IMG/VR virus record: IMGVR_UViG_3300027708_000022
Coordinates: 1-64,000 of that record
From: a virus
Strand: one strand, 5' to 3'
Length of the DNA: 64,000 nucleotides
Shown here: one piece after another, positions 1-63,686 of the stretch
Position numbering within the stretch: the first letter of the stretch is position 1
Layout: every line of letters starts with the position of its first letter
Program-made: the position numbers and the translations under genes
Notes under the pieces: generated by a model
Told to the model about the DNA's origin: nothing
The model's input: the letters and a program-made list of their open reading frames with translations, nothing else
Database searches by the model: none

Positions 1-985
1 ATAGTTTTTCTTCTAATACTTTCAATCCAGATTCTATTTCGGTAACTCTATCATTATTCTCTTTGATTTGTTGTTCTTTAAACCCCAAGGCAATTTCTTG
101 CTTACAGGTTGGACAATTATCATTCTGTTCAAAGAAACTGATATCAGTCTTATATTTGGATAAGTTGTTCTCAATCTGCGATTCAATTTTAGTAAATTTC
201 TTGAGTCTAGTCTCGACTTCAATTTTGTTTTCCACGTCGGTTTGTAATATGTTGATTGAGTTGGATGTTTGTTGTATTTTTTCTTGTAACTCAAGTATGT
301 CAGTATTATACAATTTGATTTGATTATCATATTCTTCTACCTTCTCATCATTAGTTTTTTGTATACTCTTAATATGAGTATTCTGGATTTCAATCTTTGC
401 TTCTACAATTTGTAACTTAGAATTGTTTTCAACAACATGATCTTTGTTACCAGACATCTTCTCTTTCAATACAGTATTCATTGTAGAAAAGATTTGTATG
501 TCTAGTAAATCTTCAATGATAGACCTACGATCAGATGCAGATAACTGCATGAATGGCACGAATGATGCAGAACCTAATATAACAATCTGTGTAAATGATT
601 TATAATTTAATTTTAGAATAAACTTCTCTAAGTATTCTTGATAATCTCTACTTGCGGCATCCTGATTCAGTAAATCGCCATCTTGATATATTTCAAAGAT
701 GTTAGGTTTTATGCCACGAATAATTTTATATTTTTTATTACCAATATCAAATTCACATTCAGTAACACAATCTTTTTGATTGATGGCATTAATCAGTTGT
801 GGTTTGTTAATACTTCTAAATGCTTTACCAAATAGAGTAAAACACAATGCATCAAGCATCGTGGATTTACCCGCACCATTAGAACCAATAATTAATGTAT
901 TAGACGATCTTTGAAAATCAATCTCGGTATAATAATTACCAGTGCTAATAAAGTTCTTATATCTAACTTTTTTAAATACAATCAT
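1..985 (-). CDS. gp46: Recombination endonuclease ATPase subunit (Rad50/SbcC-like), 5' part; runs off window edge
   Basis: Not in ORF track. Manual translation from ATG at 985 (TAATG overlap with gp47 stop): MIVFKKVRYKNFISTGN...IIGSNGAGKSTMLDALCF (Walker A)...SFTQIVILGSASFVPFMQL. Confidence 0.95.
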   Translation of the reverse strand, partial: MIVFKKVRYKNFISTGNYYTEIDFQRSSNTLIIGSNGAGKSTMLDALCFTLFGKAFRSINKPQLINAINQKDCVTECEFDIGNKKYKIIRGIKPNIFEIYQDGDLLNQDAASRDYQEYLEKFILKLNYKSFTQIVILGSASFVPFMQLSASDRRSIIEDLLDIQIFSTMNTVLKEKMSGNKDHVVENNSKLQIVEAKIEIQNTHIKSIQKTNDEKVEEYDNQIKLYNTDILELQEKIQQTSNSINILQTDVENKIEVETRLKKFTKIESQIENNLSKYKTDISFFEQNDNCPTCKQEIALGFKEQQIKENNDRVTEIESGLKVLEEKL

Positions 986-2055
986 TAATCAACTCTCTCT
1001 ACATTTACCGCTTCAACGTATAGTTCTTTCATTAGACCTTTAAGTATATCAGGTTTTACATTCAATGTCAACCCATCAATATACTTATTTAAGATAGTCA
1101 TAGTATCTTCCGCTTGATTTACCAATTCTTCATCATCGGTAACTGAATTATCGGTAAAATCTTCAACTATACCTATATCAGCAACACCAGTTTTATATAA
1201 GTTATCCATCACACTATCAAACAGATATGGATTTTGTTTGTTGACTACCACAATCTTAACGTAAGTATCTTTCAAATTATCATAATCAAATGCTTTCCAG
1301 TATGTAAAGTCTTGGACAGTATCATCATAACTTAATCTATGAAACATTTTATATGGATTAGGTATAAATTCTAGTTCTCTTGTGTCTGTATCAAATACAT
1401 GAAATCCTCTTTGGTCATCATAGTCTGCCCATGTAATTTCGTATTGATTGCCTAGATATGTTATATTACCATTAGTTGATTTATGATGAAAGTGACCAGA
1501 TAATACAGTATCAAATCGTTTGAATAGAGAAGAATCTAAACCACCTTGACAAACATTACCACGATCCATTTCAAATCCAGATATTTCAAAATGACCAAAT
1601 ACAATTTGACTCTGTGTATTATTTAAAAATTCTAAACTACTTTGATAGTTACTTGAATTTATCCATGGTACCAATGCAACATTAATACCATCATATACTC
1701 TTTCAACGGGATCAATATACACATTTACATTATTGTAATGCTCAAATAATTCATTCATGGCATTGATTTCATTTGTATTCTTGTAAGTAACATCATGATT
1801 ACCTACAATAACATCCATTTGAATATTGTTCTTTAATAATCTATCAAAGAATCTTTTACGCCAAGAATTCAATGTAACATAATTAATAAATTTTCTACGA
1901 TCAACAACATCACCTAAATGACAAATCTGTGTGATGTTATTTTCTTCTAAGTATGGAAAGAATACATTTTCCCAAAACTTAAAAAAGAATTCATTGAATA
2001 TTGCACTGTCACCTCTTGCACCGGCATGGGTGTCATTTATTAGGGCTAACTTCAT
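985..2055 (-). CDS. gp47: Recombination endonuclease nuclease subunit (Mre11/SbcD-like)
   Basis: Metallophosphoesterase motifs DTH, GDVVD, GNHD, GHFH; start moved to ATG 2055 (MKLALINDTH) behind a GGTGAG SD-like sequence; adjacent to gp46. Confidence 0.95.
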   Translation of the reverse strand: MKLALINDTHAGARGDSAIFNEFFFKFWENVFFPYLEENNITQICHLGDVVDRRKFINYVTLNSWRKRFFDRLLKNNIQMDVIVGNHDVTYKNTNEINAMNELFEHYNNVNVYIDPVERVYDGINVALVPWINSSNYQSSLEFLNNTQSQIVFGHFEISGFEMDRGNVCQGGLDSSLFKRFDTVLSGHFHHKSTNGNITYLGNQYEITWADYDDQRGFHVFDTDTRELEFIPNPYKMFHRLSYDDTVQDFTYWKAFDYDNLKDTYVKIVVVNKQNPYLFDSVMDNLYKTGVADIGIVEDFTDNSVTDDEELVNQAEDTMTILNKYIDGLTLNVKPDILKGLMKELYVEAVNVERVD

Positions 2056-2485
2056 CAAACTCACCTTTTTTCTGATATTCTATTCTATAAGTTCTGTTAC
2101 GTAATTCACTACTGCTAAAGTGATGATCTCTCCGATTAAAATAGATTTCAATACCTCTACCAGCACAGATATCTTTTGCAGTGAATTGTTTTTCTTTATA
2201 TTCATCACCAATAATTCTAACTGAAATTGGGAATGAACGGAATATTTCCTCTAAGTCACTTTCATATGTGTATGGTATAATCTGATCAACATATGTAACT
2301 GCCTTGAGTTGAATATATCTTTCAACTACACTTTGGATAGGTTTATTTTTTTCTTTCCGATCAATTGTTGGATCAGTTTGTAATCCAACAATTAAAAAGT
2401 CACATTGAGTCTTTGCTTCTTCTAACATCAATATGTGACCAGCATGAAGTAAATCAAATGCACTACATGTAAATCCAACTCTCAT
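2033..2485 (-). CDS. Cytidylyltransferase (glycerol-3-phosphate cytidylyltransferase/TagD-like)
   Basis: FDLLHAGH (HxGH) motif, VGLQTD, C-terminal R...SSSELR; SD AGGAG. Confidence 0.85.
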   Translation of the reverse strand: MRVGFTCSAFDLLHAGHILMLEEAKTQCDFLIVGLQTDPTIDRKEKNKPIQSVVERYIQLKAVTYVDQIIPYTYESDLEEIFRSFPISVRIIGDEYKEKQFTAKDICAGRGIEIYFNRRDHHFSSSELRNRTYRIEYQKKGEFDEVSPNK

Positions 2486-2495
2486 AATAATCTCC

Positions 2496-3053
2496 TTAAA
2501 TTTCTGGTAGTTCTTTCACATCCAATTCAATAAAGTTTTCAATACCTTTAATCTTTACTTTCTTTTTATTCTTTTTAGTTTCTTCAAATGTATGAATGAA
2601 TTCTGATATGTTATCATACATTTTAAATTGTTGCATATGCCCATTCTCATCTTCAAACATTTCACCTTCATCTAATAAACCAAACTGTTCTGTTGCTTTG
2701 TATTTTACATATAGTTGTTTCTTCTCTTTGGCAATTCTTCGTAGAAATGCAAAGTAAATAATCTGTGTAAAATAGGCAAATGGATTAGATGATTTGGCAG
2801 GATCAAAGTTTCTGAAATACATTATACAATTTTCAATACCATCTGCAATCATTTCATCTCTAAATGAATATGATACGAAGTTTGGTTTTCTAGATAGATG
2901 TTCTGCAATTTTAATAAAACATTCACCGATATAGTTTGGTACTATAGGTTCTGGTTTATCATTTTTTTTGGCTTCAACACACTTTTCGGTATAATCGGTT
3001 AGTGCTTTTAAGAAGTCGGCATTGTTAATGTAATGTGCTTTTTTCTTACTCAT
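2496..3053 (-). CDS. gp55: Late-transcription sigma factor
   Basis: HYINNADFL...YIGECFIKIAEHLS.KPNFVSYSFRDEMIADGIENC..YF.NFDP.KS.NPFAYFTQI; T4 synteny with gp47/46. Confidence 0.95.
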   Translation of the reverse strand: MSKKKAHYINNADFLKALTDYTEKCVEAKKNDKPEPIVPNYIGECFIKIAEHLSRKPNFVSYSFRDEMIADGIENCIMYFRNFDPAKSSNPFAYFTQIIYFAFLRRIAKEKKQLYVKYKATEQFGLLDEGEMFEDENGHMQQFKMYDNISEFIHTFEETKKNKKKVKIKGIENFIELDVKELPEI

Positions 3054-3074
3054 AATATTTACCTTATATTTCGC

Positions 3075-3103
3075 TTGACAGGTTAGTGATACATTGTTAT
3101 AAT
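3075..3103 (+). promoter_or_regulatory. Consensus sigma70-type (early) promoter, oriented antisense to the local operon
   Basis: TTGACA (3075-3080), 17-nt spacer ending TGT, TATAAT (3098-3103). Confidence 0.8.
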
Positions 3104-3117
3104 GGTTTTGTCGTTCT

Positions 3118-3549
3118 TTAATGTAATATTCTTTTCTTATTACTTAATACTTCTTTAATGGTTTCAATACTATCTACATACTCTGAGAACTCTTCTTCTG
3201 AAACATCTTCTTCATCACCATCTTCGTTTAATGATTGTTCAATGTGGTCTGACTCTTCAATGATACATTCATTCAAATCAATCACTGCCTTATTATAATA
3301 ATTAACAAGAGATTCTTTAGGTTGAAATACAGTTAATACGTCTTGTGAATAAACTGTAGCCATATTATATTGAATAATCTCTACAGGTAACCAAGGTACC
3401 ATCATCATAACTGATTTACCAGTAATCTGTCTTTTAAATAATACTGTCATAGGATTGTTAAGTGTAACGATACCTTCTTCTTTATCTTCTATCATAGAAG
3501 CAATGATATCTTCACCCGATTGCATCCTTATTATTTTTATGTTATCCAT
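3118..3549 (-). CDS. Conserved T4-like hypothetical protein with acidic C-terminus
   Basis: IKIIRMQSGEDIIA N-terminus typical of the gene lying between uvsW and gp55 in environmental T4-like phages. Confidence 0.7.
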   Translation of the reverse strand: MDNIKIIRMQSGEDIIASMIEDKEEGIVTLNNPMTVLFKRQITGKSVMMMVPWLPVEIIQYNMATVYSQDVLTVFQPKESLVNYYNKAVIDLNECIIEESDHIEQSLNEDGDEEDVSEEEFSEYVDSIETIKEVLSNKKRILH

Positions 3550-3579
3550 GTCAAAAATACCCTTTTAGGTAAAAAAAAT

Positions 3580-3587
3580 TATAAATA
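3580..3587 (+). promoter_or_regulatory. T4-type late promoter for the GIY-YIG gene
   Basis: Exact TATAAATA about 60 nt upstream of ATG 3646. Confidence 0.75.
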
Positions 3588-3645
3588 AGTGTAGATCGCC
3601 GAGTTGCAGCTCGCACCTACTCTAATACGAAAGGACCGTATCAGT

Positions 3646-4146
3646 ATGACTATTTATTCTTCTAAAAACAGACCTAATCATTTTTATGTATATGCTTATC
3701 TAAGAGATAATAATTTACCTTATTATATAGGTAAAGGTTGCAGAGATAGAGCATGGAACAAAAATCATTCAATAAACATACCTAATGATAACACAAAAAT
3801 AATAATAATGCAAGCTAATTTAACGGAAATTGGAGCATTTGCCATAGAAAGAAGAATGATTCAATGGTATGGAAGAATTGATAATGGTACAGGTATACTT
3901 AGAAATTTAACTGATGGTGGTGATGGAACATCCGGTTATAAACAATCAGAAATACACATACAAAAACGAAAAAAAGCTAGACTTTTAAGTGGATATAATC
4001 ATACACCAGAATCTAAAAATAAATTATCAATTAATAAAACAGGTAAACTTAGACCAGATCATAGTCAAAAAATGAAACAGTATTGGGATAAAAAAACAAA
4101 AGAAGAAAAATTACAACATTCCAAAAAAACTTTTAATAAAAATTAA
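3646..4146 (+). mobile_element. Free-standing GIY-YIG-type homing endonuclease with NUMOD3-like DNA-binding motifs
   Basis: FYVYAYLR...YYIGKG...R, E..MIQWYGR, LRNLTDGGDG, HTPESKNKLS; opposite strand to neighbours; start set at ATG 3646 (MTIYS) rather than TTG 3604; stop overlaps the uvsW-C stop (TTAA 4143-4146). Confidence 0.85.
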
Positions 4147-4838
4147 ATTTTTAATTCTATATTATAAAACTTATAATTAAATTTTTCATCGTCATACATC
4201 TTTACTCTGCCAACGAAGTGTGTCAAGGTATAATTAACATGTTTGCCTATTCTAAAATCATCAGAGATATCATAAAGAACCGCTTCTTCTTTATTATCAC
4301 CTAATCTAAGTCCACGACCAATTGATTGTAGATTACGAATTTTTGATTTAGATGGTGATGCAAATATTACATTATGTAAATTACGTATATTAATACCAGT
4401 TGAGAATGTACCGTATGAAGCAACAATAATGGCATCTGTTTCACGTTCAGTTATATCTCTAATAGATTCTCTAACTTCGGTATCAGTACCACCATATACA
4501 AAAAATACTTTACGTTTACCTGCTTCTTCTTTTATAATATTATGTAGAACTTTACCATGTTTATCTACAAATTGAAATAGTATTAATGAATTACCTTTCA
4601 ACGACAAGGCAAGATTCTTTATAAATGCATTTCTTGCTGTGTTCAATACTATATATTCAATCTCTTCTTTGTAGTCCCACTTCTTAGATAACTTACAAAC
4701 TTCTTCTGGATATTTAAGTATTAAACATTTAATCTTAAATTTAGATAACTGTTTGTTATCCATTAATTCTTTTGTTGTTGTTGCTTTATATACTGGTCCA
4801 AATAAACCTTCTAATACTAATCTATGAACATTACTCAT
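4143..4838 (-). CDS. uvsW: UvsW helicase, C-terminal half (RecA2 domain)
   Basis: HRLVLEGLFGPV, VASYGTFSTGINI (motif V), LQSIGRGLR (motif VI). Confidence 0.93.
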   Translation of the reverse strand: MSNVHRLVLEGLFGPVYKATTTKELMDNKQLSKFKIKCLILKYPEEVCKLSKKWDYKEEIEYIVLNTARNAFIKNLALSLKGNSLILFQFVDKHGKVLHNIIKEEAGKRKVFFVYGGTDTEVRESIRDITERETDAIIVASYGTFSTGINIRNLHNVIFASPSKSKIRNLQSIGRGLRLGDNKEEAVLYDISDDFRIGKHVNYTLTHFVGRVKMYDDEKFNYKFYNIELKI

Positions 4839-5493
4839 TTTTTTCCATAATATTTTTTAACATTTGTTGTCGTCTTTTTTCTATCAATAATAAAGATTTT
4901 TCTTTACCTAAAAGTTCTTCGTATGTTTTGCCTCTTGACCAATCACCAATTTTTTTCTTAGATTCTTCTGTGTGTGGATATCTGCCACTATATGTTAATT
5001 GTTCAAAGGATATTTTTCCATCAATAAAAGAATACAACCTTCTTTTTGTTGTTTGTAATTTTTCCCAAGCTTCTTTTCTACTTTTATACTTTATTCCATT
5101 TATTTCTATTTCTTTAGCATTTGGATTATTTTCTGACATTCTTTTCATTTCTTTATCAGAAAGAGTTTTACCTTTATGGTGTAAACTTGCTGATAAAGAG
5201 TGTGCTTTTCTAGCTATTTCATAACCAATTGAAGTGTAGTACCTATTAGTAGAATCATGGTATCTCATCATGCCAAAAGCATGACCCATTTTAATTTTAT
5301 CTTTTCCTTTTGAGAATTTCCATAATAACCAATGACACACAAAGTGTTCTCTTGCTGTCAATTTTACTTTATTTTTTTTACCATTGTCACCACCTAAAGA
5401 TTTAGGTATTATATGGTGCTCCTCAAAATACTCGGACATTGTCCGAGTATTAGCTTTTTCTATTATAGAGTAATATATTTTTTGATAGTCCAT
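4831..5493 (-). mobile_element. HNH homing endonuclease inserted in and splitting uvsW
   Basis: EEHHIIPKSLGG.N...N.V.LTAREHFVCHWLL HNH motif; NUMOD-like HTEESKKKIG; lies between the two uvsW halves. Confidence 0.9.
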
Positions 5494-12549: not shown

Positions 12550-14193
12550 TTATTTAGTTTTATTGAAAGCATACTTATTTACCGCATCATCTAATTGCGG
12601 AGTAGGCGATTCAGTATCACCATTTTCAACAGTATTGTCAATTGGTTCTGATGGCGGACCACCTTGTTCTTGACCTTGTTGTTCTTGAGCAGTAGCTGCA
12701 AGTTCACCTTCTTCTTCAATTTCTTTCTGCATCTCGTCAATTTCTTCTTGAGTCATATGCAGAACATTCTTTTTAACCCATGTTGATGAGTAATAACGAC
12801 CAACATACGGATCAATTTGTGTCGCTGTTGAAATACGCTCACGCAAGATTTCTGCATCACGCATTTCTGTAAAGTTATTATCTTTCTTAAAGTCATAAAA
12901 AATGGCTTCTTTAAATTCTTCCCACTCTTCAACGGTACAAACACCTTTCAATGATAATTGAATACGAAGAGCATCGTCAAAAATACGAGAGAATTTATTA
13001 CGCAATCTAGCAATAAACTTACTAAACTTAACTTCATCACGAGTAACTTCATTTGTTCTACCAATACCCATGATACCACCACCTTGTGGGTCAAGGCGTG
13101 AGATTGGCACATTCAATGAATTTAATAATTTCTTATGAAAGTAAAGAACATCTTCCATCTGGCCTAAGTTTTGTCCAGCAGGTAATGTAGTAATCTCTGT
13201 TCCTTTACCACCTTCACGGCGAGGTAACCAAAAATCTTCTAGCATCGAAAGGTGTTTACGTTCATCACGAATCTCACCAGTATTAGCATCATATACCAAC
13301 TTGTTACGATACTGTGTCATAATAGACTTCATATATTGTTCAGCCTTACCTTTTGGTAAGTTACCTACGTCAATATAAAAAATACGTCTTTCTGGTGCTC
13401 TTGATAAACGGTAAATAACAACAGCATCTTCAATCATTCTTAATTGATTGAGTGCCTTAATTGCTTTATGTAAGTAAGAAATTACAAATGTATTCTTTGC
13501 ATCCATCAAACCAGAGTTAACATTAACTACTGATTCAGGTGCAATTCTTAAACCTTGATTAACTGATGATGTATATGACTGTGATGTTGTACCACGGTCA
13601 TTATACACATAATATTCAGCTATAGATTTAATAACTTGAGCACCAGTTTTTGGATCTCTTTCTTTTTGAATCTCACGCACTTTACGAATCTTGCGTGGAT
13701 CAATATATCTTAATTCTTGTATGCCGTCTTTTGGATTCTTATCGTTAACAACAACATGGTAATATATTCTACCATCAATGTACCAACGCTTGAATAAATC
13801 ATCAGCAAGATTTGAAAAGTTTAACATCTTTTGGATGTTTTTAAACTCTTCAAGTATTTTCTTTTTAATTGTTTCTGGTTGTTTTAGATTATCCATATTG
13901 ATATCTACAACAGTACCATCTTCTGCATGAGTAATTGCTTCATTAACAATCTCATCAATTGCCATATCACATTCAGGGTGATTTGACATTTCACGGTAAC
14001 GAGTAATCAGTTCCAGTTCATTACGAACAGAACCTTCTAAATCTACATATGTGCCGTAATGGGCATTCTGTGTGATTGTAACTGCACCATCATCATTTGC
14101 TTCTGTAGGGAGCGCAAAAGAAGCTTGCTCAGGTTTCTCAACCTGAACAATGTCCTTTTTACCTAAGGTGAACCCGAAAAGTTTTACGGCAAT
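12550..14193 (-). CDS. gp20: Portal vertex protein (start site ambiguous; see findings)
   Basis: KLFGF N-terminus, WYIDGR, LRMIEDAVVIYRLSRAPERRIFYIDVGNLPK, EDFWLPRREGGKGTEI. Confidence 0.97.
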   Translation of the reverse strand: MAVKLFGFTLGKKDIVQVEKPEQASFALPTEANDDGAVTITQNAHYGTYVDLEGSVRNELELITRYREMSNHPECDMAIDEIVNEAITHAEDGTVVDINMDNLKQPETIKKKILEEFKNIQKMLNFSNLADDLFKRWYIDGRIYYHVVVNDKNPKDGIQELRYIDPRKIRKVREIQKERDPKTGAQVIKSIAEYYVYNDRGTTSQSYTSSVNQGLRIAPESVVNVNSGLMDAKNTFVISYLHKAIKALNQLRMIEDAVVIYRLSRAPERRIFYIDVGNLPKGKAEQYMKSIMTQYRNKLVYDANTGEIRDERKHLSMLEDFWLPRREGGKGTEITTLPAGQNLGQMEDVLYFHKKLLNSLNVPISRLDPQGGGIMGIGRTNEVTRDEVKFSKFIARLRNKFSRIFDDALRIQLSLKGVCTVEEWEEFKEAIFYDFKKDNNFTEMRDAEILRERISTATQIDPYVGRYYSSTWVKKNVLHMTQEEIDEMQKEIEEEGELAATAQEQQGQEQGGPPSEPIDNTVENGDTESPTPQLDDAVNKYAFNKTK

Positions 14194-14246
14194 TTTGGGT
14201 TCCTCCACTCGGTAACATTATATAATACGAAAAGTTTTACCGCCAT
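14184..14246 (-). other. 20-codon upstream ORF beginning with the portal's own N-terminus (MAVKLFVLYNVTEWRNPKLP*)
   Basis: ATG at 14246 with AGGA upstream; 19-nt near-duplicate of the portal start 53 nt upstream of the second copy. Confidence 0.65.
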
Positions 14247-14268
14247 TAATATTTCATCCTATATCAGT

Positions 14269-14293
14269 AAAAAGTAAGGGCGAAGCCCTCACT
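14269..14293 (-). terminator. Terminator between gp19 and gp20
   Basis: AGUGAGGG-CUUCG-CCCUUACU followed by UUUU. Confidence 0.75.
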
Positions 14294-14295
14294 AT

Positions 14296-14841
14296 TTAAA
14301 CCACACCAGTATCAATTGATTCCCACCATTGGTAGGAAAGAGTCACGGTAAATTCTTCAATACTATCGTTTGAGCCCCAATCAACGTCAATTGGTGACAC
14401 ATCTGTTGGGAATACACCCAAGAATTTATACTTCTTCAGAATGTCACCAGCTTTGCCAAATTGTGTAACTTCAGAATCAACTGTGTATGATGCTGGAGTT
14501 TGAGCTAACGGATTACGCACGTTTAAACCATGACTATTAATACCATTCAACCAACGCTCGAAAGCGTTACGAATAGCAAAATCTTCATCGTTAATGATCG
14601 TGATTGTCCAGTCTGTAAATGATCTGTTGCCTGCAAACTTCAACTCACGGCCAAAGTATTGAACAGGCACAGTACCGATGGTTGAACCAGGTAACTGTGC
14701 TGTTTTACACATGAAAGTGACTTTTTGTTGTGCATTAGCAGCATCAGAAAATCCAGGGAACGGTAAACTCACCTCAAATAGATTTGGGCGAGCACCGTCT
14801 CCTGTCATTTGAGAGCGGAATTGATTTATATTGAATGCCAT
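14296..14841 (-). CDS. gp19: Tail tube protein
   Basis: GARPNLFEV, FMCKTAQLPGS.IG, GRELKFAGNRSF.DWTITI.NDEDF, IEEFTVT..YQWW. Confidence 0.96.
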   Translation of the reverse strand: MAFNINQFRSQMTGDGARPNLFEVSLPFPGFSDAANAQQKVTFMCKTAQLPGSTIGTVPVQYFGRELKFAGNRSFTDWTITIINDEDFAIRNAFERWLNGINSHGLNVRNPLAQTPASYTVDSEVTQFGKAGDILKKYKFLGVFPTDVSPIDVDWGSNDSIEEFTVTLSYQWWESIDTGVV

Positions 14842-18505: not shown

Positions 18506-18943
18506 TTACTTTATAATGCTACGCAGCATCCATGCTTTCTTTTGATGGGCACCTAAAAGTTCTTGCAGAAAATTAGATACAGCTGGTTCACCCGCTTGGT
18601 CTGCAGCAACAATACCTGCACGGAGATGAACGATGAACCTATCGTTGTCAGATTTGATTTGTGCCATCATTGCCAATGCTGATGGAATCACATCAACAGC
18701 TTCTTGAATATCGGATAGTTCTAAAAATCTTTCCATAGAACCTGGAACATACGAATCTAAGTATCGAATATGCTCAGCAATCAAATCTGTTTGTGCAAAC
18801 ACTTCATTATAAAAATTGTTTAAAAAATCATGATATTGTGGAAAGTTTTGACCTTCAATGTTCCAATGAAAGTTGTGACTCTTTAGGTATAATGCAAAGT
18901 TGGTACCCAAAATAACTTTTAATTGTTGAATTAGTTGTTCCAT
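18506..18943 (-). CDS. dps: Dps / ferritin-like DNA-protection protein
   Basis: HNFHWNIEG.NF...H...D.IAEHIR ferroxidase signature; HQKKAWML. Confidence 0.9.
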   Translation of the reverse strand: MEQLIQQLKVILGTNFALYLKSHNFHWNIEGQNFPQYHDFLNNFYNEVFAQTDLIAEHIRYLDSYVPGSMERFLELSDIQEAVDVIPSALAMMAQIKSDNDRFIVHLRAGIVAADQAGEPAVSNFLQELLGAHQKKAWMLRSIIK

Positions 18944-61718: not shown

Positions 61719-63686
61719 ATGGAAAATAATTCACTTACTGATATTGTTAAATCTCGCCGTGAAGCTGGTGAAGGTGTCTTTGGTTCTTTAGCTGGAGCAG
61801 CTAAAGAACGCCTGAAAGAAAGAATGGATTGGAAAAGACTTTTACCTCAAGGTGGTTTGTTAACTGCTTTATTTCCAAAACTCAAGGCATACAAAGCTCA
61901 GAAAGCTGCATCTCCAACAGAAAAAGTTTTAAAGAATATTGATACCGATTTTGCTTTATTTGCAAAGAACAGTAAAAAATTGGAATCCATTGCAAATAAT
62001 TTTTTGTTAATGAAAAGAGAAGTTAATAAACTTGCTAAATTGGAAAAAGTATCTCCTGCGACTAATGTGGACAGATCATTGGATGCGGAAACAGGAACAA
62101 CAGATACTACACAACCATCTAAAATTGAAACTGAAAAAGGTGGATTTAATATTTTATTGTTAATTGCTGCTGTTGCCGCTGTTGCAACAGCTGTAACGGT
62201 GGGATATGAAAATTTAAAAGAGTCATTTGATTCCACTATATCAGAATCTTTGAAACCACTTTTACATTTTGGTTCAGATTTATTTGAAGAATTTGAAAAT
62301 ATATTTGATTGGACAGAATTAAGAATGTCTGATTTATCCGACCTTGCAGAAGATACAATGGATTTTTTCAAAGAAAATCTTTCTAAATTATTTAATATGG
62401 ATGTTTTAGGTAAAATTAAAGATATTGCCAACAATGTTATCTCTAAATTTTTAGGAACGGATAGTGGTGGTGATAATGTAAAAACTCAAATTTATGATCC
62501 TGAAGCTGAGAGAAATGCTGGAGAAGCAGAAGCTCAACATTATATGCGTGATAGGGAGTCAGCATTAGTAGCTGCTCAAAATGATCCAAATACCAAAACA
62601 CGAAAGAAAAGATCAAGTAAAATTTTGGATATGGAGGGATTATTATCTGGTGAAAATGCTCTAGGTAATGTTATAGCTTCAGGTGAAAGTCGTGGAGCTG
62701 GATACAATGCGTACAATAAAGGAACTATAGGAAATAAAATAATTGGTTCGGATAAAAAAATAGATTTTTCTAGTATGACACTTGATGAATATTTTAGAAG
62801 ATCCGAATTGCCATCTAATGATCCTGATAAGTTATTTGCTGTTGGAAAATATCAAATAATTCCAGATACGATGAAAGGTATTGTTAAAGCTTTAGGGGTT
62901 GATACAAAAACAACACAGTTAACACCTGATGTACAAGAATCTTTTTTTAAATATCTTGTTAGTAATAGAAGAAATTTGAACGCATATCTCAAAGGTAAAT
63001 CTGATGACTTAAATGGAGCTATTCTTGACCTTGCTAAAGAATGGGCAGCTGTCGGTGTTCCATATGATAATCCAGACGGGAAACAATTAAAAAGGGGACA
63101 ATCATATTATTCCGGAACAGGTGGTAATGCGGCTAGTCTTTCACCTGAAATCATTGGTCAAGCTTTAGTTAAACAGAGAAGTGATAATTTAACTTCACCG
63201 ACAACAGCATCAGCAAAAACACCATTACCAACTGCATCAGTAACACCAACAACAGTACCAACAACAACATTATCAAAAACACCATTACCAACTGCATCAG
63301 TAACACCAACAACAGTACCAACAACAACATCATCGAACATCACCAACAATACCAATACCAACAACATTACAGCACCAACAACAACGAACATCACCAACAA
63401 TACCAATACCAACAACATTACAGCACCAACAACAACGAACATCACCAACAATACCAATACCAACAACATTACAGCACAAGATATAACTTCGATAAAAACA
63501 GCATCTATATCTCCGAATGTTATTGGTAGTAAACCTAATAACCAAAAAACGGTGTATATTCCTGTTCCTATTTCCTCCGGATCTGGTGGAAACAATCAAG
63601 ATAATGTAACAAATTCAAGAAACAAATTAAAAGAGGATTATGTTGCACGATTAATGTGGAACAATCTTGTTAATAATCTCGGATAA
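61719..63686 (+). CDS. Tape-measure-like protein with lysozyme-like domain and Thr/Asn-rich repeats
   Basis: Hydrophobic segment ILLLIAAVAAVATAVTVGY; IASGES.G.GYNAYN...AVGKYQIIPDT...LAKEWAA lysozyme-like motifs. Confidence 0.65.
   Translation: MENNSLTDIVKSRREAGEGVFGSLAGAAKERLKERMDWKRLLPQGGLLTALFPKLKAYKAQKAASPTEKVLKNIDTDFALFAKNSKKLESIANNFLLMKREVNKLAKLEKVSPATNVDRSLDAETGTTDTTQPSKIETEKGGFNILLLIAAVAAVATAVTVGYENLKESFDSTISESLKPLLHFGSDLFEEFENIFDWTELRMSDLSDLAEDTMDFFKENLSKLFNMDVLGKIKDIANNVISKFLGTDSGGDNVKTQIYDPEAERNAGEAEAQHYMRDRESALVAAQNDPNTKTRKKRSSKILDMEGLLSGENALGNVIASGESRGAGYNAYNKGTIGNKIIGSDKKIDFSSMTLDEYFRRSELPSNDPDKLFAVGKYQIIPDTMKGIVKALGVDTKTTQLTPDVQESFFKYLVSNRRNLNAYLKGKSDDLNGAILDLAKEWAAVGVPYDNPDGKQLKRGQSYYSGTGGNAASLSPEIIGQALVKQRSDNLTSPTTASAKTPLPTASVTPTTVPTTTLSKTPLPTASVTPTTVPTTTSSNITNNTNTNNITAPTTTNITNNTNTNNITAPTTTNITNNTNTNNITAQDITSIKTASISPNVIGSKPNNQKTVYIPVPISSGSGGNNQDNVTNSRNKLKEDYVARLMWNNLVNNLG
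63214..63477 (+). repeat. Coding tandem repeats: 2 x 60 nt then about 3 x 51 nt
   Basis: KTPLPTASVTPTTVPTTT at 63214 and 63274; NITNNTNTNNITA at 63334, 63385, 63436. Confidence 0.9.

Follow-up and report, generated by a model that had tools for sequence, protein, structure and literature searches.

Probable AUU initiation of a T4-like phage portal gene at the remnant of a putative homing endonuclease gene

In the uncultured T4-like phage described here, translation of the portal gene gp20 most likely begins at an AUU codon (position 14193, minus strand) that would give the protein its normal N-terminus and that lies in the scar of a decayed homing endonuclease gene (HEG). Sequence comparison extends this beyond a single genome: AUU, AUC or AUA (AUH hereafter) is also the most likely portal start in dozens of wild relatives. 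The window, meaning the whole stretch of DNA analysed, covers the initial 64 kb of a contig of 162 kb, and positions refer to it unless a contig or locus is named. A preliminary description of this DNA had portrayed the region as a dedicated translational device limiting portal output; we find a decayed HEG instead, and most AUH alleles lack the upstream reading frame and hairpin seen in the window.

The portal gene occupies 12550..14193 on the minus strand (547 codons counted from the ATT; Pfam Portal_T4, E 6e-181), with an intact frame; identity to the nearest relative reaches 98% across the 329 columns that were compared. No cultured close relative was found, and the top portal matches are cyanophages, at 55%. 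Its upstream neighbour on the same strand is the gp19 tail tube gene (14296..14841), with a late promoter ATAAATA just 5' of it at about 14867 (minus strand). An intrinsic terminator-like hairpin with a U-tract lies between gp19 and gp20 (14263..14293, minus strand; stem 14293-14273; z -3.7), and most relatives have a similar terminator-type hairpin between these genes.

The start of the portal gene is duplicated out of frame. A 20-nt repeat, 90% identical between copies and with a 13-nt exact core, occurs at 14228..14247 and, 53 nt away, at 14175..14194 (minus strand, as are all features in this paragraph); close repeats of that kind number 24 in the real genome and 0-1 in shuffled genomes. 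The first copy is a portal start of the type found in alleles empty of the HEG, and before it stands the ancestral portal Shine-Dalgarno sequence (SD; AGGA, 14257..14260) in the same context that the AUG has in empty alleles and in intact HEGs. This SD now serves a 20-codon upstream ORF (uORF, 14184..14246; ATG at 14246, TAA at 14186-14184), a HEG remnant composed of 6 portal-like first codons and the last 14 HEG codons, whose TAA overlaps portal codons 3-4. The second copy is the 5' end of the portal gene itself, with ATT at 14193. Between the copies, a 34-nt spacer (14194..14227) is homologous to the HEG 3' end, with 25-26 of 34 positions identical, ungapped, to intact-HEG and longer-remnant alleles. 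HEG Trp-Arg codons here encode a GGAGG SD (14202..14206) 8 nt before the AUU, and HEG Glu-Trp codons form an in-frame GTG (14206..14208, the -5 codon). The calculated SD duplex is strong for ATT 14193 (-9.3 kcal/mol, at initiation spacing), as against +1.5 kcal/mol for GTG 14208, which has no SD. A heptamer, C CCA AAA (14193..14199), reads C CTA AAA in HEG alleles. The sequence statements of the preliminary description are all borne out: the 53-nt out-of-frame duplication (AUG 14246 and AUU 14193), the GGAGG and its spacing, the phased heptamer, the inverted repeat, the upstream terminator and the SD-less GTG 14208. The TATAAT at 14222-14217, inside the spacer, was considered as a promoter and rejected: it lacks both the TTGAC -35 box and the TG extension that mark the clear sigma-70 sites of this genome, and it coincides with Tyr-Asn codons also present in the remnant of L118.

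Comparison of gp20 5' regions among relatives, which had been suggested as a check on the duplicated start, reveals a series from HEG to remnant at the same site, with AUH starts kept. Among 78 relatives with a readable 5' end, the portal starts at ATG or GTG in 76, mostly behind AGGA, and at ATT or ATC behind GGAGG in the remaining 2. In L016, one of these two, tail tube and portal are separated by a 217-aa ORF that starts at the usual portal ribosome binding site (RBS) and AUG and whose TAA overlaps portal codons 3-4. Pattern searches place the intact 217-aa HEG at this site in L016 and L082/84/85; remnants measure 54 aa (L088), 20 aa (the window and L087), 14 aa (L090) and 7 aa (L065, L081, L089), and the intact HEG and all remnants in the series end at the same TAA. 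L015 (ATG, empty) and L016 (HEG and ATT) form an empty/occupied pair with almost identical portals. On a 96-sequence portal tree the AUH allele is scattered, with 11 state changes of which at least 10 are forced, as expected of a mobile element. The window element itself contains no intact nuclease ORF, its 20 codons being a remnant. Other arrangements at the site were seen as well: L095-L098 carry a sister HEG class (214-215 aa) and keep a normal portal ATG through a TGATG stop-start overlap; HEG length class goes with portal start type in the loci read; and at L118:3815-3885 an AUH allele has a different HEG-tail remnant and no terminator after the tail tube gene.

The parent element is a putative free-standing GIY-YIG (I-TevI-like) HEG inserting on the portal start, an assignment we base on its single site, the empty/occupied pair, the scattered distribution on the tree and the I-TevI-like structural model. 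The 217-aa protein has 142 homologues. Its model (pLDDT 86.7) matches the I-TevI catalytic domain in Foldseek (prob 1.00, TM 0.71 by target, E 5.8e-3) and the I-TevI DNA-binding domain (prob 0.99), and the top four matches are all I-TevI domains (prob 0.98-1.00, with weak E values of 5.8e-3 to 0.13); the predicted structure thus combines a GIY-YIG catalytic fold with a DNA-binding module. Pfam recognises GIY-YIG or NUMOD3 in some homologues, distant ones only, and the query itself gave no match in Pfam, PHROGs or PDB sequence searches. In every locus read the HEG occupies the same site, as an optional insertion with empty alleles and horizontal spread. Elsewhere in the same genome there is a relative of the portal-site HEG (G000:C1:103675-104130, 32% identity), and window 4831-5493 holds another homing endonuclease gene (phrog_655, E 1.6e-37).

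These comparisons show that the HEG, inserted on the portal start, took over the portal SD and AUG, and that its last codons provided a stronger SD of their own, GGAGG, with an AUH in place of the AUG 8 nt further on. In the window's lineage nearly all of the HEG would later have been lost and an empty-type start joined to the last 14 HEG codons, giving the apparent duplication. The homology on which this junction rests is evident from the comparison. The route, recombination between an empty-allele start and a HEG tail, is put forward more cautiously because no HEG homologue begins with the first repeat copy (none among about 100 starts with the 19-nt portal-like sequence). The portal would now be made mainly from AUU 14193, with a normal N-terminus.

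Conservation across AUH alleles is what makes initiation of the portal frame at the AUU behind GGAGG, as the preliminary description had considered, the most likely reading. A pattern search of loci with the start codon left free returned 70 matches, or 35 distinct alleles, and the free codon was ATA, ATT or ATC in all 70 (35/35 distinct alleles). In 29 of the 35 there is no in-frame ATG, GTG, TTG or CTG upstream before an in-frame stop, leaving AUH at the family start position with no canonical in-frame alternative; in the window GTG 14208 remains. In HEG-free alleles the next canonical codon 3' of the AUH is usually codon 28-69. Because the free codon is always AUH and 29/35 alleles have no canonical alternative, AUH initiation appears nearly forced in HEG-free alleles. 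Portal codons 2-10 vary almost only synonymously and so are probably translated. The spacer and leader are conserved base by base, with AAA at -3..-1 in 36 of 36 alleles. Median SD pairing is -6.5 kcal/mol in AUH alleles vs -4.0 kcal/mol in AUG alleles, a comparison among related alleles whose p-value is overstated for that reason. In E. coli, AUU, AUC and AUA initiate at 1-2% of AUG (PMC5499595); behind strong SDs in S. aureus they do so at about 10% (PMC13009471).

The main rival is a start at GUG 14208, either SD-less or by re-initiation after the uORF stop, which would give the portal five extra residues and make the ATT an ordinary Ile codon. This GUG is canonical and in frame, is located 5' of the core stem of the hairpin described below, and is homologous to an ATG in all long intact HEG alleles read; the T4 portal, for its part, can accommodate N-terminal fusions on some subunits of its ring (PMC9958956). 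The residue before the Trp is, moreover, never Asp or Asn in the long-HEG class (0/29 vs 11/60, p 0.014, the observations not being independent), a bias that keeps A or G at that place, and the upstream AUG/GUG may also be used there. However, the GUG has no SD, its homologous codon is TGA in 23 of 36 alleles and TGA, AAT or ATT in 26 of 36, and 1-base insertions and deletions fall between its position and the ATH in independent contigs. HEG allele L098 shows that an upstream ATG can be a by-product of the Glu-Trp codons: reading from it there meets an in-frame stop ahead of the portal ATG. On balance we hold a portal made from GUG 14208 to be unlikely.

Two further readings would draw on ribosomes that begin on the uORF. 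A -1 slip at C CCA AAA, yielding a portal with an 18-residue extension, is improbable: the heptamer does have the X XXY YYZ form of dnaX or IS-type sites and the right phase, but it is unique to the window-type allele, the SD precedes it by 2 nt (SDs that stimulate -1 shifts are found 9-14 nt upstream, and at 3 nt a +1 shift is favoured; PMC5009743), and there is no 3' stimulator, the structure 3' of it amounting to only about -3.7 kcal/mol. Depending on the allele, the nearest upstream ATG is at -14, -15 or -16; other alleles would need a -1 shift, a +1 shift or none, and no single frameshift could be the shared route. A common mechanism by +1 shifting out of the 4-codon mini-ORF that HEG-free alleles contain was also tried and rejected, since the ATG of this mini-ORF has no SD and is missing in L118. 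A bypass like that of T4 gene 60, in which ribosomes would hop 53 nt from a codon in one copy to its match in the other and so give a normal N-terminus, we find scarcely credible. The matched codons are there, and the gap is near that of T4 gene 60, where a HEG-related insert measures 50 nt (PMC5009743), but no stop follows any matched take-off codon, the uORF being open through codon 20; take-off at codons 3-6 leaves no nascent-peptide signal; and none of the other AUH alleles has the duplication. The four matched codons in the 13-nt core would be a by-product of the duplication. We accordingly give a low probability to both the slip and the hop that had been offered as routes into the portal frame. 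An assembly artefact or a dead portal allele is very improbable. The contig ends are homologous at 74-80% only, so the contig may be chimeric, but the identical 53-nt element is found in L087, a different genome (85% identical to the window genome over 8.1 kb, with a different tail-tube end), which makes local misassembly unlikely; a dead allele fits poorly with a portal frame that is intact and nearly identical to that of its closest relative. Beyond L087, no carrier of the window-type duplication was found.

Given initiation at AUU 14193, we somewhat favour its being coupled to termination of the uORF. An allele-specific hairpin (14159..14215, minus strand; core arms 14202-14193 / 14179-14170; -16.3 kcal/mol) has the uORF stop in its loop and is predicted to cover part of the SD and the A of the AUU. 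It is the strongest among 76 natural portal start regions (next-best -10.1, mean about -7), is no more stable than dinucleotide-shuffled versions of its own sequence (z -0.27), and is known from two genomes only. The earlier statement that this hairpin buries the AUU stands as regards the inverted repeat but goes too far as regards the codon, only the A of which is paired while its other bases and the uORF stop are on the loop side. As a family trait the hairpin was rejected, since other AUH alleles lack it (they average -7.1, and AUG alleles -6.9). Four of the 5 spacer differences from the HEG type stabilise it (P about 0.005-0.03 vs random changes), and either selection or template-switch mutation could explain them. 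Ribosomes on the 20-codon uORF would melt the hairpin, stop at the UAA in the loop and restart 7-9 nt back at the AUU. Opening of the hairpin by uORF ribosomes, proposed before, is probable. Coupling of this kind fits two described cases: restart within seven codons of the stop in T4 HEG overlaps (PMC2988022) and SD-aided re-initiation near a stop codon (PMC2268962). The geometry fits, with the stop near the start and the SD inside the uORF, and occlusion of the AUU is predicted from folding; because the uORF stop sits in the hairpin loop, coupling is the likeliest working of the window allele.

By analogy with known systems, the best reading of the window element would be non-AUG initiation of the infC/pcnB/ccpN type together with translational coupling, derived from a seg-like HEG. 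Like the free-standing GIY-YIG HEGs of T4-like phages (seg, I-TevI fold; PMC2988022), the portal-site HEG is intron-less, lies in a conserved cluster, is patchily distributed, overlaps its neighbour by about 10 nt and has occupied and empty alleles. In the T4 cases the HEG start overlaps the upstream gene and the HEG is throttled (PMC2988022), whereas here the HEG takes the RBS and AUG of the host gene, and the essential gene restarts at an AUH from an SD within the HEG; in the window, moreover, only a 20-codon scar is left. A conserved, Ile-type start behind a strong SD is shared with E. coli infC and pcnB (AUU) and with S. aureus cvfC1 (AUU) and ccpN, citZ and infC (AUA) (PMC5499595, PMC13009471), the differences being that ours opens a phage structural gene, that its third base floats between U, C and A, and that it belongs to a mobile cassette with a fixed spacer. 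As in translational coupling elsewhere (PMC2268962, PMC2988022), the upstream ORF ends within three codons of the start and contains the SD, but here a HEG scar forms the upstream ORF, and the codon used for restart is a non-canonical one. With the T4 gene 60 bypass (PMC5009743) the element shares an out-of-frame insert of ~50 nt, matched codons and a HEG-related history, and differs in having no stop after take-off, no nascent-peptide signal and no conservation; bypass is also unnecessary, since an alternative start is present. A partial literature search turned up no paper describing T4-like portals with AUH starts, or describing this HEG family.

That the AUU start serves to throttle portal output is plausible for a protein present in 12 copies, given that output is usually reduced at AUH starts. 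Against this purpose, the same leader with AUH opens tail-tube and major-head genes in other phages, and high-copy genes are unexpected behind a pure throttle. No further copy of the leader was found in the window genome, where it occurs once. Among 46 non-portal matches, leader plus AUH opens start-like ORFs in 17 (background 3.9%), among them two genes of the tail-tube family, one major head, one gp15-like and one exonuclease. Leader plus ATT/ATA occurs in other phages at L192:5092-5676, L199:3697-4284, L207:1247-2482, L185:4567-6009, L182:3869-4714 and L167:656-2434; tail-tube-family, major head, gp15-like, exonuclease and tape-measure-like genes are the types seen at these six loci. One might speculate, with considerable doubt, that the leader (GAGG, one free base, ACCYAAA, AUH) acts through its specific sequence to make AUH starts efficient or IF3-escaping in infected cells, and is a portable restart cassette borne by the HEG for insertion on essential-gene starts and here tuned by selection into a switch of uORF and hairpin.

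The genome has several other features that we record here. The same genes occur at both contig ends (G000:C1:158119-162042 and window 74-4930) at only 74-80% DNA identity, which may mean either that two strains were joined in a chimera or that a duplication has diverged. ATAAATA late boxes stand only 4-6 nt 5' of SD-less ATGs at window 50579, 45604, 22229 and 5505 (minus strand), a spacing that suggests leaderless late mRNAs. In G000:C1:67600-97100, which looks like a typical early-gene cassette region, about 15 strong sigma-70 promoters (TTGAC, 17 nt, TG-TATAAT) are nearly identical to one another and share the sequence downstream of them, and G000:C1:76454-85101 holds a 25-tRNA gene cluster, three of its members with CAU anticodons. 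Between the small and large terminase genes is a 145-aa gene (window 18506-18943; phrog_3636, DNA-binding) that is Dps/ferritin-like by eye. Low-complexity tandem repeats (57 and 93 nt exact) occupy window 63197-63477 inside the gene 61719-63686, which also matches the phrog_90 endolysin.

AUH starts also bear on annotation: at HEG-bearing loci gene callers place the portal start at the -5 codon and annotations are extended, while in HEG-free AUH alleles the next canonical start is usually 28-69 codons downstream and annotations are truncated. Ranging from intact HEG to bare leader, the alleles offer a ready reporter set for AUH start function and throttling. For the phages themselves, the portal start would be a stepwise case in which a selfish nuclease rewrites the signal at which an essential virion gene is started, the non-AUG start persisting after the nuclease has decayed.
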